64,000 nucleotides of DNA from Spirochaetota bacterium (GCA_965208615.1 CBDBPB010000004.1:320001-384000); one strand, 5' to 3'; shown: positions 34,181-63,321, counted from the first letter of the stretch. Numbers and translations are program-made. The notes: generated from the sequence alone by a model not told the origin.

Positions 34181-35414
34181 CTAGTCTAGACTTTTTCTTA
34201 GTTTTCTTAAACGGATTTCAGCTCTTTTTCTTTGTTCCTGAGCTCTTTTTCTTTGTTTTAGTGCCTTTATTCTTTGTTCTTCAGCTCTTATTCTTTGTTC
34301 TTCAGCCCTTATTCTTTGTTCTTCAGCCCTTATTCTTTGTTCTTCAGCTCTTATTCTTTGTTCTTCAGCTCTTGTTTTTTCTTCTTCAGCTCTTTTTTTC
34401 TGTTCCTCAGCTTTTGTTTTTAAGGCTGTTATATCTTCCTCAGAATAAACATTTAATTTATTATAAGCTTGCTGAATACCTTTTGATACAGCAAGAGAGG
34501 TGATAGTTGCTCCTGAGATAGAGTCTATACCAATAAGAGGTTTAAAGTCCTTTTTATTTTTTGGCATTCTATTTGGATCTTTACCTTTAAAAGCATTTAT
34601 GAAATCATTATCATTAGCTTTAGTTCCTAGTCCTGGAGTTTCTTCGTGTTCCACCATTAAAAAACCGACTATTTTTCTGTTTATATCATAGCCTACAAGC
34701 ATAGCAATATTACCACTATATCCATCAGTGACATAATGTTTTATTATCCATCCTGTTAGGACATTTTTATTATTAGGATCATAAGCCTCGTGGTAGCTGG
34801 CAATTTTAATATTTTCCTGATTAAGCTTATTGATTAATTTATTATATTGCTTTTGATTAATTATGATAGGTGTAAATTTAAGATTACCTCTGTCAGTAAG
34901 TTGCAGTTTTTCATTCTTTTTTAGGACTATAAATTCAATAGTTTTTCTTTCGGATAAAAGAGCAAAGTTATTAGGCTTAATGATCTCGTTAAAGATTTCA
35001 TAGCCCCTTCCTTTTTTACTATGTTTTTCTATGAGATAAATAATTTGCGGACTAAATAAGATATCGTAGGTTTTTTCATATAGAGTTTTAATAGCTTTTT
35101 GATAGTCGCTATTAGCGGATAACTTAATAAGATGACTTTTTTCTTTTTCACTCATCTTACCAGTATAGCTTAATATTTTTGTTTTATTATCGTAGTATAT
35201 TTTTGTTTGTCCTTTAAGGATTGTTTTAGTAGGAAGTTTATCTAGAGTAGTGTTGGTTATTTTTGAAAATACTTGTTTTCTAGCTCGTTTTTCAAAATCT
35301 TGTTTTGCTTTTTCAATATCTTTTTTTGCTAATAACGTAAGTTACGGATAGTAATAATACTAGTATTCCTGCTAGTCCTCCTAGTTTAAGTCCTGTTTTT
35401 AACATATCATTCAT
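34181..35414 (-). CDS. rnfG: RnfG/RsxG-like FMN-binding protein with charged C-terminal repeats; +1 frameshift at T7 35321-35327
   Basis: Start MNDMLKTGLKL with TM anchor and AGGAG RBS; GYSG, ETPGLG, DSISGATITS flavinylation motif. Confidence 0.75.
34219..34395 (-). repeat. 21-bp coding tandem repeat (RAEEQRI)n
   Basis: About 8 imperfect heptads visible in DNA and protein. Confidence 0.9.
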
Positions 35415-35955: not shown

Positions 35956-36706
35956 ATGATAAAAAAGGTTATTTTAGTAATGTTTGTTTTTTCTATAGGG
36001 TTCATAGGTTGTTTTGTTGATCATACCACCCCTAGGGTAACCAGGGTTGAATATGTTGAATATGAAGGTCCTCGTGATGGTTATTGGTACGATTATAGAG
36101 TAAAGGCTTATAAGCGTGTACCTACAAGATATAATAGAGGTTGGTATTATAGCTATGATAGGGGTAGATGGGTAAGAACTCCACCAAGATATAGAAAACA
36201 CTGGTATTATGATCATCATGATAGGCGATGGTATCGTTCTGATAGAAGAAAGGCTTTACGAAAAAAGGCTAGGAGAAGGGCTTTAGAGAGAAGAAGGGCA
36301 AGAAGAGAGGTACGTAGAGATTTTAGACGCGAAAAACGTAGAGATGAACGTAGAGATCTTAGACGTGAGAGGCGTAGAGATGAACGTAGAGATCTTAGAC
36401 GTGAGAGGCGTAGAGATGAACGTAGAGATCTTAGACGTGAGAGGCGTGAGGTACGTAAAGATCTTAGACGCGAAAAACGTAGAGATGAACGTAAAGATCT
36501 TAGACGCGAAAAACGTAGAGATGAACGTAAAGATTTTAGACGCGAAAAACGTAGAGATGAACGTAAAGATTTTAGACGCGAAAAAACGTAGAGATGAACG
36601 TAAAGATTTTAGACGCGAAAAACGTGAGAGACCTAAAGAAGATATTAGGCCTAAAAAAAGATATACACCAAAAGAGAGCAGAGATCCACGTAGGGAATGC
36701 ACGTAG
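35956..36706 (+). CDS. Arg-rich repeat lipoprotein; +1 frameshift at A6 36581-36586
   Basis: AGGAGG RBS, lipobox FIGC, Trp/Tyr-rich region, then RRDERRDLRRE repeats; other repeat units carry A5 at this site. Confidence 0.7.
36311..36625 (+). repeat. 33-bp coding tandem repeat, ~9 copies
   Basis: CGTAGAGATGAACGTA(G/A)AGAT(C/T)TTAGACG(T/C)GA unit. Confidence 0.9.
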
Positions 36707-37371: not shown

Positions 37372-37756
37372 TATTTTTTAGGGAGTTATTTTCGATTATT
37401 TATAATTTTTGTATAGGTAAATATATAAAAAGACGTTTTATGATAACTTTCTTATTAAGAAGGTGTTGTTACTAATTTTTCTAGTAGTGTAGATCAAAAG
37501 TACTCTAAGATAATTTATCTTTTTTAAAACTTAAAAAATACAGATTATCAAGTTATAGAAAGTGTTCTGATGAGAGTAAAAAGGTTGTGAAAGAGGTTTT
37601 TGATAATGGGGATAAATATAAACATGTAGGTTTAGACTTTGGGTTAGGGGTGGTAAGCATATTTATTTTTTTGTTAATGTTAAGGGGATATTATTTAATA
37701 ATTCAGTTATCATTTTATGATAGAGTTATGCCGAGTCATACAAGGTAAAAAGTAAG

Positions 37757-38060
37757 ACATATAACGTAAAGGCAAGTGAATTTTAGATTTCTTTGTAGAA
37801 CAAGAAAGTTAAGATCTTTATGGAAAAGTTATTTTCTTGTATCAAGCAGGTTATCCCTCTATGCTCTTTAAGTGCTGATTAAATGCCTCAGTAATGAACA
37901 CAAAATATCACTTTTTATGCAAGTAGTCATCACTACGAGAGCTATTAAGAATCCCTTACTGAGACTAAGAATTATAGACCTTTATTAAGTAATAACGGAT
38001 TTGCCCTTCCATAAAGACGTAGAGCGAATTATTCAAATATCGTATATTGACGTTATATGT
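37757..38060 (+). ncRNA. Candidate large structured ncRNA, copy 1 (homology block 37687-38064)
   Basis: Closing stem ACATATAACGT/ACGTTATATGT; internal helices covary with copy 2; no ORF. Confidence 0.65.
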
Positions 38061-38427
38061 AAAAGCCGGTGGGAGACTCTAACGCTTTAACAGAATATCT
38101 AAGCTAACTCATATAAAAATAAGCTGTAACCCTTTACAAGGGTCCACAAAACCATTGATAAAAAAATAATTAATAAAACTAAAATGCTAATCAAACTTTA
38201 ATTTATTATTAAAATTATCGATTACTATAAAAATAGATTGCCTTGTTACAATATTTATTAATACTTATAAACTAGATTATTAATTTTATAATATAAATAC
38301 TTTAGAATTAATATTATAAAAAAAACTCTTAACAAAATAAAATCTAATTTATTAACTTTTTAATATGTATATATGAATTAAAAATATTTATATTAAACTA
38401 TTTTAACAAGTATGTACGGTTAGCCCT

Positions 38428-44351: not shown

Positions 44352-44612
44352 TTAATACTCCATTAACTATTTGTTATCATTAAATGTGGTTTATTATATT
44401 TATTAGAACGTTTGCTAACAATAAATCTATACTACTCAAATTAATAAAAAAGTGAAGCTTAAAATCCTTTTTTTTAAAATTGTTATCCATAATAAGTTAT
44501 TATATTAAAATATTACCCTATAAAATAAAAAATATAAAAATTAGCATGTTTCTTAAAGGCATTATTATATTTGAGTATCATTTAAAAAAATAATATTTGT
44601 TATGGTACGCTT

Positions 44613-53848: not shown

Positions 53849-54060
53849 TTTAGTTTGAGTTTTTTAAGACATTATGAGTATAATTAAATTTTTGATAATA
53901 ATCAATAATAGTTTCTTAATTTAGGTTAAGAAATGTTTAGTTAGCGAGGTGAGGGGTTTATGAGCAAGGCTTCCAGTAAATATAGCAAAAAGGTATTTTG
54001 TTATAATTTAGTTTTAGTTTTTTAAGGCATTATGAATATAGTTAAATTTTTGATAATAAT
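53849..54060. repeat. Imperfect 54-bp direct repeat (53849-53902 and 54007-54060)
   Basis: TTTAGTTT(G/T)AGTTTTTTAAG(A/G)CATTATGA...TTAAATTTTTGATAATAAT. Confidence 0.8.
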
Positions 54061-54200
54061 TGTTACTAATTATTTTAGTTTTTAGATAAAGAATTATTCT
54101 AAGACAATTGCTAAATAGATTTTATTTGTATTTTTTAAGTTTTAGAAATATAAGTTAGCTTAAAATATTTTTGATCTACACTATTAGGGCAATTAGTAAC
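54061..54200. repeat. ~135-bp palindromic dispersed element, copy 1
   Basis: Terminal IR GTTACTAATT/AATTAGTAAC; homologous to 60253-60384 and 61097-61231. Confidence 0.8.
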
Positions 54201-54315
54201 CACTAATATACAATAACAAATACTTATTTTTTTTTATTAAATAATAATGAATATTTATAAAGTTAGAGTGTTACTATAAAGTAATAAAATAGATAAAGGC
54301 TTGAAATTATGATAT

Positions 54316-59768: not shown

Positions 59769-60252
59769 AATCGACCCCTCTATCTTTTAGTAATTTTCAT
59801 TAATTATATTCTTTAATTAATAAAGCATTAGTTATAACTGTTATTTTCTTAAACACTTATAACTTAGTATATTAATTTAAACTAACATATTATTTTATTA
59901 GTTTAGATTTTCAATTTGTTAAAGTTAAAAATATCAACTTATTAAGTTGATAAAAAACTTTATATAAGTTGTAAATATAACTAATTATTTTTAAGGTTAG
60001 CAAAAATAACCTATTAATTTAAAATTAGTTTTATTTAATTCACAACAAAAAATATAATAAGTAATCTTTTATCGTATACAGAAGAAGTTATTTTTTAATA
60101 AAATTGGAAAAAAACTATTTTAAGTTAGGCATTAGAGTGTCAACTCATTGTTACAGGGGCATTACAGCAGATATAAAAAAAAGCATTTTATGATAATTTA
60201 CTAATTTAGGCGTGGATGTATTATTTAACAATTCACTTATTCTGTTGTGAGG

Positions 60253-60384
60253 TGTTAGTAATTATTTTAGCTTTTAGATAAGTTATTCTAAGACGACTGC
60301 TAGCCAGGTTTTATCTATATTTTTTAAGTTTTAGAAATATAAGTTAGCTTAGTTTAATCTGCACTATTAGAACAACTAGTAACA
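60253..60384. repeat. ~135-bp palindromic dispersed element, copy 2
   Basis: TGTTAGTAATTATT...AACAACTAGTAACA. Confidence 0.8.
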
Positions 60385-60528
60385 GATATTTTTGTCATTT
60401 TGGACACTATAAATACTATTTTATGGGAGTTAGATTATTAAAGATTGTTAGGTATTATCTATTTTTTTTGAGGATTATAAGTCGTTTTTGTATTCAGCAC
60501 TACCACTGCACGTCCATTTTTACCGATA

Positions 60529-61089: not shown

Positions 61090-61096
61090 TATTTTG

Positions 61097-61231
61097 TGTT
61101 ACTAATTATTCTATCTTTTAGGTAAGGAATTACTTTAAGACAATTGCTAAATAGATTTTATCTATATTTTTTAAGTTTTAGAAATATAAGTTAGCTTAGT
61201 TTAATCTGCACTATTAGAACAACTAGTAACA
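61097..61231. repeat. ~135-bp palindromic dispersed element, copy 3
   Basis: 17-bp terminal IR with 2 mismatches (TGTTACTAATTATTCTA / TAGAACAACTAGTAACA). Confidence 0.8.
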
Positions 61232-61375
61232 GATATTTTTGTCATTTTGGACACTATAAATACTATTTTATGGGAGTTAGATTATTAAAGATTGTTAGGT
61301 ATTATCTATTTTTTTTGAGGATTATAAGTCGTTTTTGTATTCAGCACTACCACTGCACGTCCATTTTTACCGATA

Positions 61376-61665: not shown

Positions 61666-61758
61666 TTACCTCTTCTGAAGATGATTGTGTATGTACTCTT
61701 CAACTGGTAATTTTACTAAAAGCTTTTGTGATATGTTTATGCCTTCTTTTTTTAGTTT
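61666..61758 (-). pseudogene. 5'-truncated copy of the RHH-like gene
   Basis: Matches the 3' half of 60852-61019; homology ends at ~61758. Confidence 0.6.
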
Positions 61759-62183
61759 AGAGTGTTAAGCTCTAATAGGCCAACGCATATAAAGCTATAT
61801 CATTTAAAAATAAATCTACTATAAGGCAATCAATCTCAGGGAAAAGTACAACTAAAAAAAGTACTTAAACCTATTTCAAAGGGGATAGCTATATTTTAAT
61901 AAGAGGTTTTAATATTCCCAGTTGGCATACCTATACATAATATGTGATAATTTAGTATAACGGACACTTCATCAAGTTTAGGTTGTTGAAAATAGACATG
62001 CATATAAACTTGTACGCTCAGACCTTGATTCAGGCGAGTAAGTATATTTATTTTTTGTTAAGGCTAATGTTAGTATAGCTTTTCTTTTTTATGATAATTT
62101 AGGTTATTTAGAGTGATATTATTTAGTGATTTAGTTATCATCTTATGACAAAGTTATGACGAGGGATACAAGGCAAAAGGAAG

Positions 62184-62487
62184 ACATATAACGTAAAGGC
62201 AGATGTATTTTAGATTTCTTTGTGGAACAGGAAAGTTAAGATATTCATGGAAAAGTTATTTTCCTGTGTCAAGCAGGTTATCCCTTTATGCTCTTTAAGT
62301 GCTGTTTAAATACTTTAGTAATTAACACAAAATATCACTTTTTATGCAAGTAGTCATCATTACGAGAGCTATTAAGAATCCCTTACTGGAACTAAGAATT
62401 ATAGACCTTTATTAAGTGTTAACGGATTTGCAGTCCCATAAAGGCGTAGAGCGGATTATTTAAATATTACATGTTGACGTTATATGT
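62184..62487 (+). ncRNA. Candidate large structured ncRNA, copy 2 (homology block 62115-62491)
   Basis: Colinear with copy 1 (constant offset 24427), same closing stem, covarying helices. Confidence 0.65.
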
Positions 62488-62546
62488 AAAACTTCAAAAA
62501 AGTATGCTTAACCCTCTATAAATAAATAACAACTATAAAAAGTAAA

Positions 62547-62903
62547 CTGCCAGATCCTCTTTACAATAATACACCTAAAATAAATAGTAATACCTAAATC
62601 TTAATCGAATTACACCAGTATATAGCAAAATTAACTGCCAACCTGCCAGATCCTCTTTACAATAATACACCTAAAATAAATAGTAATACCTAAACCTTAA
62701 TCGAATTACACCAGTATATAGCAAAATTAACTGCCAACCTGCCAGATCCTCTTTACAATAATACACCTAAAATAAATAGTAATACCTAAACCTTAATCGA
62801 ATTACACCAGTATATAGCAAAATTAACTGCCAAACTGCCAGATCCTCTTTACAATAATACACCTAAAATAAATAGTAATACCTAAACCTTAATCGAATTA
62901 CAC
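62547..62903. repeat. 96-bp non-coding tandem repeat, ~3.7 copies
   Basis: CTGCCAGATCCTCTTTAC... at 62547, 62643, 62739, 62835; stop codons in all six frames. Confidence 0.95.
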
Positions 62904-63321
62904 CTATATATACTAAAACTAACTACTGAAAATTATACTCCAATTATTAATGCCAAATAAACTATATCTATAACCTTAACTATAATTATATGTTAACTAC
63001 TTAATCTAATAAATAGCCTATAACATATTACTATGAACCTTTTAAAAGCCCATCCATTGACTTTAAACAATTTTTTTGTTATCCTTGTAAACAAAAGTAA
63101 ATTATAACCTAAATCATATTTTAAAAAAACTGTTATCTAAATATATGCATACTTAAAAATGGAAATGGGCTTCTTTAATATAAATCTTCTAATTAAAAAG
63201 TATACTATGAAATAAGGTTATAAACCAATATTAAAAATTATAACTAAATAACTAATAATAAATGTTCAAAGATTTAACCCTTAAACAATATATTAAAAAA
63301 AATGTATAATGTGAGACGCCT

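Follow-up and report, generated by a model that had tools for sequence, protein, structure and literature searches.

An interspersed composite repeat with a core of nearly fixed length in a Spirochaetota genome, possibly spread by a resident Mu-like phage

What is the block at positions 37687–38064 of this stretch of Spirochaetota DNA, which recurs at 62115–62491 and was originally predicted to encode a new structured RNA? The window, by which we mean the whole stretch analysed, covers 64 kb of contig C4 (C4:320001–384000) in a genome of 2.46 Mb (nine contigs, ~31% guanine plus cytosine (GC), assembly 99.4% complete) that is the sole representative of its family and genus among the genomes compared. 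According to our analysis, the 378-nt block belongs to an interspersed composite repeat, non-coding and apparently lineage-specific, of which it represents two modules, an upstream U block and a core. The origin that on balance we consider likeliest, with modest confidence, is that of a lineage-specific non-autonomous element resembling a mini-Mu or a MITE (miniature inverted-repeat transposable element), which would have been spread in trans by the enzymes of a resident Mu-like phage and later reshuffled among its copies.

The two cores in the window, copy A (37757–38060) and copy B (62184–62487; C4:382184–382487), both lie on the plus strand, measure 304 nt each and align without gaps, with 30 differences (90.13% identity), in agreement with the original count of about 30 substitutions. 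The element had been called multicopy on the basis of these two cores; this holds, but genome-wide BLASTN with the core finds 40 full-length and 13 partial copies rather than two, and a sequence profile of the core matches 43 places. Pairwise identity among the full copies ranges from 81 to 100%, with a median of 88.6%. All 40 are intergenic, and none overlaps an open reading frame (ORF) of at least 100 amino acids; the six frames are closed in every copy (median longest open stretch, 30–38 codons), as expected from the earlier description of an ORF-free block. The spread across contigs is uneven: 17 full copies reside on C4, and contigs C5, C6 and C9 (450 kb together) carry none where 7.3 would be expected (Poisson P ~7e-4). 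C6 has four partial core copies, and the GC content of the three contigs equals that of the others.

Outside this genome, BLASTN and the sequence profile detected no core homologue in 40 relatives, which share at most its order and at least its phylum. Two exact degenerate patterns had no match in one genome per GTDB species, one pattern had none in metagenome contigs or viral contigs, and distant BLASTN returned no match in plasmids or phages. As far as the collections searched reach, the family looks lineage-specific.

The core is embedded in a modular unit with an overall size range of 0.6–1.5 kb. From left to right, the unit comprises 1–15 direct S-motif units, optional P and X segments, the U block, the core, a D segment of 60–130 nt and one or two inverted S-type motifs. 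The basic unit measures ~0.7 kb and extends up to ~1.5 kb when internal tandem arrays are present. With the first base of the core as reference, homology in the closest copy pairs extends from about –290 to about +405–434, beyond which the DNA is unique, indicating that a ~0.7-kb unit was copied, not a chromosomal segment.

At copy A, repeated DNA spans ~37450–38064, and the following modules all lie on the plus strand. The left-end-like unit (37466–37599) contains a 19-nt S motif (37466–37484; C4:357466) and the X segment; it has 50–75 genomic BLAST matches, is homologous to a 201-nt array unit on contig C1 and is tandemly repeated upstream of other copies. The P block (37600–37672) begins with TTGA(C/T)AATGGGG and is common to the tandem-array units of many loci (coverage 56–69). 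The U block (37687–37756 in copy A and 62115–62183 in copy B) directly adjoins the core on its 5' side and is kept in 36 of the 40 copies, the other four having a different upstream module. Its TCAT-n3-ATGA dyad (37710–37720), already singled out as conserved in the original prediction, is found in 34 of the 40. The core itself is bounded by 11-nt inverted repeats (37757–37767 and 38050–38060).

At least 14 of the 40 copies have tandem arrays on the upstream side, no more than 250 nt from the core, and the periods include 74, 110, 144–146, 156–169, 201–222, 263 and 318 nt. The units are near-identical inside an array and different between arrays, and their number varies from 2 to 15 between loci. 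By comparison, downstream arrays occur at only four of the 40 loci; one of these is copy B, in which an array of 3.9 copies with a period of 96 nt (62547–62924, plus strand) lies inside the repeated DNA of the locus (61745–62924). One or two inverted S-type motifs are present no more than 260 nt downstream of the core in 27 copies, 60–135 nt after the core, and the left and right S consensus sequences agree at 14 of 19 positions. We also asked whether S motifs might delimit an autonomous element; the ORFs lying between paired S motifs did not resemble transposases (sequences read by eye, with no family search).

One further core copy is split by an insert of 35,348 bp (C7:424830–460177) that is bounded by near-identical ~55-nt inverted repeats with TG..CA ends. 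The 5' half of this core lies at C7:460298–460178 and the 3' half at C7:424829–424640, both on the minus strand, and the insertion carries a 6-bp duplication, GTGCTG, which occurs once in intact cores. By its predicted gene content, the insert is a Mu-like transposable prophage. The putative transposase (532 amino acids, C7:427508–429106) matches PHROG 310 with an E value of 3e-35, and its rve score of 23.4 bits is below the cut-off; a 282-residue AAA protein matches the ‘DNA transposition protein’ phrog_296 (E 2e-26) and is MuB-like. In addition, the prophage encodes a Mu-type portal (Portal_Mu, E 5e-90), a Phage_Mu_F domain, a large terminase, an Xre-type repressor, anti-repressor-like proteins and a sigma factor. 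TG–CA ends and 6-bp duplications are described for transposable prophages of Leptospiraceae in a survey (PMC8705779). Among the 40 relatives, the phage transposase has weak, partial matches only, in four genomes. A second, diverged prophage is present from C7:139129 to ~170224, and the transposase region of the C7 prophage is duplicated at C3:10639–15823 (5.2 kb, 98.5% identical), with a smaller fragment also in the genome.

The termini of this prophage and the right terminus of the repeat are homologous. The outermost ~55 nt of the right terminus are ~80% identical to both prophage ends, with scores of 56–57 compared with 20.6 ± 3.0 (maximum 32) for 200 shuffles and BLAST E values of 1e-6 to 5e-5, and a right terminus with this homology exists in at least ten copies. 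A phage-end pattern allowing up to three mismatches has 26 genomic matches, as against ~1 expected under a first-order Markov model: three at prophage ends, ten at right ends of the repeat (nine in full copies and one in the split copy) and 13 elsewhere. One of these last is a solo phage-type terminus inside the window (44365–44421, minus strand; C4:364419), an end sequence of ~50 nt with no adjoining prophage or core, and the other 12 likewise fall neither in prophages nor in core units. Viral contigs did not contain the phage-end word. On the other side of the repeat, the left S unit and the phage ends both have a TGTTA terminus and two TTCTA(A/G) boxes placed 24 nt apart. Mu terminal repeats are the binding sites of Mu-type transposases.

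These features suggest how the family may have arisen. The right terminus, and probably also the S motifs, would derive from the transposase-binding ends of the resident Mu-like phage; the MuA-like transposase and MuB-like ATPase of the prophage would have spread the unit in trans, and perhaps still do. Recombination among the copies would then have scrambled and homogenized them, which would also erase duplications, and the core would be a conserved cargo or a cis-acting module of the element. The original prediction had included, among its options, a non-autonomous substrate of a recombinase encoded elsewhere. This option fits the right terminus, which is homologous to the ends of a prophage with a transposase elsewhere in the genome; what the sequence shows directly is the copy number, the modular anatomy, the homology of the ends, the resident helper phage and its one insertion into a core, whereas mobilization by that phage and a function for the core are inferred.

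Genome searches found no other candidate enzyme for the predicted mobilization. Family searches of the genome gave no TnpB (PF07282), IS110 (PF01548), Y1 (PF01797), reverse transcriptase (PF00078), serine recombinase, rve (PF00665) or DDE_Tnp_1 protein; these negatives are not absolute, because the PF00665 search missed the phage transposase. Clustering of ORFs of at least 120 amino acids revealed no multicopy transposase, and the tyrosine recombinases of the genome are only two, one XerD-like and one XerC-like. An Xer/dif module was also considered, and a search for dif-like motifs gave no clear site.

Several observations weigh against spread by the phage. The left S unit scores 27–29 against the phage ends, which is not significant alone (shuffles, 20.5 ± 4, maximum 39), and none of the remaining repeat modules has a BLAST match in the prophages. 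Likewise, the core does not appear to be a copied phage operator or enhancer, as the words that it shares with either prophage are not beyond chance. Thirteen of the 40 copies, both window copies included, have no recognizable right end. No target-site duplications flank the units, as the original prediction had stated: the 19 copies to which two ends could be assigned match on average at 2.16 of six flanking bases, compared with 1.96 for mismatched flank pairs, and none match at five or more. The small core-less units bounded by S motifs likewise have none. At copy C7:2720, the flanks read GCTCTT/GCTCTA when the ends are placed by eye. The identity of 81–100% among full copies indicates that most of the spread is old. 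Furthermore, the best-kept part of the element is its interior, the opposite of a typical MITE, and the pattern of the core points to selection that transposition alone does not explain.

This pattern concerns both length and substitution. The core measures 303–304 nt in 39 of the 40 copies, the remaining one having 313 nt with a 9-nt insertion, and by inspection its alignment contains only ~5 internal indel events, unlike the flanking modules, which are rich in indels. Substitutions are unevenly placed, with 11–15 parsimony steps per 20 columns in the central 80 nt (~37908–37987 in copy A, plus strand) compared with 33–58 in the outer parts, that is, 4–5 times fewer. On a maximum-likelihood tree of the 40 cores, at least 515 substitution steps are required where the minimum possible is 200; the resulting consistency index of 0.39 indicates much recombination or recurrent change among the cores. 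The data suggest that the length and centre of the core are constrained, in a pattern that neither neutral decay nor the needs of transposition would explain.

A fixed length and a conserved centre would also fit a protein-binding platform, and this leads to the rival that survives best, which we nevertheless regard as unlikely: that the repeat is a DNA element used by the host. It would be a protein-binding or promoter/insulator module located in promoter regions, whose arrays tune or phase-vary neighbouring genes (in many cases those for lipoproteins and surface proteins), or else its phage-like ends would act as decoys, titrating the transposase or conferring target immunity of the Mu type. 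The arrays do multiply a motif that resembles the phage end, and their unit number differs from locus to locus. The genomic setting is suggestive as well. Fourteen copies lie between divergent, 23 between co-oriented and three between convergent genes, so that 37 of the 40 occupy intergenic regions with at least one gene start, and the upstream neighbour is divergent in 28. Judged by eye, 11 of these 28 divergent upstream genes encode a lipobox-like N-terminus. Furthermore, a family of predicted surface proteins, repeat-rich and Cys/Thr-rich, comprises 14 ORFs, of which 11 lie within 4 kb of a core. However, many neighbours are housekeeping genes (a chaperone, a tRNA synthetase and a flagellar rod protein, from N-termini read by eye with no family search), the downstream gene is inconsistently oriented (23 co-oriented and 17 opposed), and the 13 truncated copies look like decay rather than maintenance. 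Nor does target immunity seem to have been effective where the phage inserted, since a phage-type end lies ~320 nt away.

The surface-protein ORFs, whose members include C2:115736–118189 and C8:87569–89587, were grouped without a family search, and some of them are pieces of one gene. Six tandem paralogous lipoprotein genes of ~305–325 codons (C1:264765–270918) end 171 nt from a core copy. The genome also contains two clustered regularly interspaced short palindromic repeat (CRISPR) arrays with a 30-nt repeat (Rfam CRISPR-DR2), at C1:280391–280819 and C1:341834–342303. The former has its end 547 nt upstream of a core copy in divergent orientation, and its first repeat, which is degenerate, adjoins an S motif; none of its spacers match the repeat family or the prophages.

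The original prediction itself, a selected multi-branched RNA, corresponds to a multicopy gene for a structured plus-strand non-coding RNA of ~300–400 nt, driven by a promoter in the U block and present as a cargo of the element or independently of it. We consider this improbable, though the near-fixed length of the core and the low substitution of its central 80 nt would suit an RNA gene. Reading of the alignment shows a –10-like TATGAT box in both kinds of upstream module, 34–36 nt before the core begins, and copy A folds somewhat better on the plus strand than its shuffles (z –2.1). By comparison, a promoter scan found no plus-strand promoter-like site upstream of or within the element (five sites found versus 8.6 expected) and no terminator-like site was found at the element.

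The central evidence on this rival comes from covariation, for which the 40 copies were aligned with their flanks (alignment A2) or as cores only (alignment A3), and the predicted closing stem, four helices and pseudoknot were counted against 500 shuffles of the 3' partners. Standard pairs fill 91.6% of the cells in the proposed helices compared with 91.3 ± 0.1% in shuffles (reached by 7 of 500), cells altered on both sides number 11 compared with 6.7 ± 2.1 (reached by 21 of 500), and pairs altered on both sides number six compared with 4.9 (reached by 171 of 500); in calibration, related unstructured sequences often reach such values. The proposed helices and the pseudoknot thus show no excess covariation, and many of their pairs are broken. 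The 11-bp closing stem, described as invariant, is so in the two window copies but not across the family, in which its C–G pair (A2 columns 108–404) is standard in 12 copies and broken in the other 28. Other pairs are broken in 20 copies (244–310), 13 copies (214–371), 12 copies (211–374) or ten copies each (215–370 and 218–368). The claim that the wobble pairs work only on the plus strand fails as well: of 45 nested pairs, 17 have G–U variants and 13 have A–C variants, which are mismatches on the plus strand and G–U pairs on the other.

An RNAalifold consensus structure fares similarly. It contains 65 pairs, three of them with compensatory change compared with 2.4 in shuffles (reached by 233 of 500), and many one-sided changes in it retain G–U pairs, as an RNA gene would lead one to expect. 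A candidate long-range helix (A3 columns 25–30 with 285–290) shows a CC/GG co-change in nine copies, nearly all of one clade. Folding discriminates poorly between the strands: for 12 copies filtered to less than 90% identity, we obtained low structure conservation indices of 0.40 (plus strand) and 0.39 (minus strand), and alignment-fold energies with z values of –2.2 and –2.0, respectively, against column shuffles. Copy A alone is more stable on the minus strand (–67.3 kcal/mol, z –2.9) than on the plus strand (–61.5 kcal/mol). In short, inverted repeats in the consensus confer modest stability on both strands, but the substitutions do not respect them; the proposed helices are inverted repeats of the family consensus and are not kept by compensatory change. 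A lack of significant covariation in a larger alignment was among the outcomes that the original prediction had itself named as refuting it. The power of the covariation analysis is limited because all sequences are recombining paralogues of one genome. The prediction that no known RNA family is involved stands: with Rfam 15, no family reaches its gathering score anywhere in the window, and among the matches up to E 10 only three fall on the element, at E 3.9–8.9 and far below gathering. At 12 other loci, Rfam matches CRISPR repeats only, outside the element.

A combination of these ideas appears to us more doubtful still, namely that the repeat is a natural mini-Mu exploited by the host or the phage. 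Here, the forty dispersed ends and the arrays would work on the transposition machinery of the phage, as decoys, as immunity sites or as points from which adjacent host DNA is packaged. The core would be the functional module, either a platform for protein binding or an RNA belonging to a new class, with a structure that paralogues of one genome cannot resolve. That the core is a decayed protein-coding gene or a fragment of one is most improbable, as no evidence in its favour was found beyond short open frames, stops occur in all six frames of all copies, the frame of 20 codons that opens at an ATG inside the core meets a stop directly after this ATG in three copies and loses the ATG in two others, and the searches of plasmids, phages, species-representative genomes and metagenome contigs yielded no similar DNA.

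Two further proposals for the core were examined and set aside. A gene for a small peptide is not supported, since the start and stop codons are not conserved. An invertible promoter between the 11-nt inverted repeats is likewise not supported: the orientation of the core is identical in all 36 copies with the U block, and the genome has no serine invertase and, among tyrosine recombinases, only those of XerC/XerD type. In low-depth contigs of one DNA sequencing run (X1), the core was never inverted, and the one joint seen, 37562 to 37687, probably comes from another copy; these observations say nothing about mobility or expression.

The window also contains three small core-less units with inverted S motifs at their ends, located at 54060–54202 (143 nt), 60252–60385 (134 nt) and 61096–61232 (137 nt). 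The latter two have identical right flanks and are thus part of a larger local duplication. Apart from the repeat family, in-frame tandem repeats occur in two ORFs: 9.1 copies with a 36-nt period at 36304–36631 (ORF 35956–36591) and 9.3 copies with a 21-nt period at 34217–34412 (ORF 34181–35155).

Our comparison with known elements places the repeat closest to two classes without an exact fit to either. Bacterial MITEs include the Correia elements of Neisseria and the RUP elements of Streptococcus pneumoniae. The repeat resembles such elements in being non-coding, intergenic and multicopy, in carrying, in many copies, inverted motifs that on the right are related to the termini of an autonomous element present in the genome, and in having truncated copies; a general census of bacterial MITEs is given in PMC11602168. 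It differs from them in its larger size (0.7–1.5 kb, the ~0.7-kb unit being at the upper size limit for a MITE), in the absence of target-site duplications, in its internal arrays, in an interior that is better kept than the ends, and in a putative helper that is a transposable phage instead of an insertion sequence. Mini-Mu elements are generally known as laboratory constructs. With mini-Mu and with Mu-like and B3-like prophages, including those of Leptospiraceae (PMC8705779), the present system shares MuA-like and MuB-like proteins, the TG..CA ends and 6-bp duplication of the resident prophage, a right terminus homologous to phage termini, and inverted end-like motifs that flank a non-coding insert. 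Unlike mini-Mu, its left end is similar at the motif level only, duplications of 5–6 bp are absent, and the cargo is not phage sequence.

BOX elements of Streptococcus pneumoniae (boxA-boxB(n)-boxC; see PMC3049150), NIMEs and BIMEs are modular intergenic repeats with variable tandem modules, often near surface-protein genes, but they have no sequence relation to the repeat, whose modules are several times longer, so that the likeness is one of architecture only. Among the multicopy structured RNAs of mobile elements, HEARO/IscB omega RNAs, TnpB omega RNAs and IS110 bridge RNAs resemble the repeat in that they are non-coding, are ~200–400 nt in length, occur in up to tens of copies and lack target-site duplications, with hypervariable patches. 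In contrast, the repeat has no Rfam HEARO match and no covariation support, and it is not a member of the HEARO/omega-RNA or bridge-RNA systems, because their genes are absent from the genome in the PF07282, PF01548, PF01797 and PF00078 searches. In the literature searched, we found no MITE derived from a transposable phage.

If the proposed spread in trans by phage enzymes is correct, the repeat would represent a naturally occurring non-autonomous element whose ends come from a transposable phage. The analysis also illustrates that apparent covariation between two copies can mislead, as the signal vanishes when 40 copies are compared. Furthermore, a core of fixed length with a near-invariant centre, in an otherwise fluid repeat, provides a concrete target in a poorly sampled lineage.

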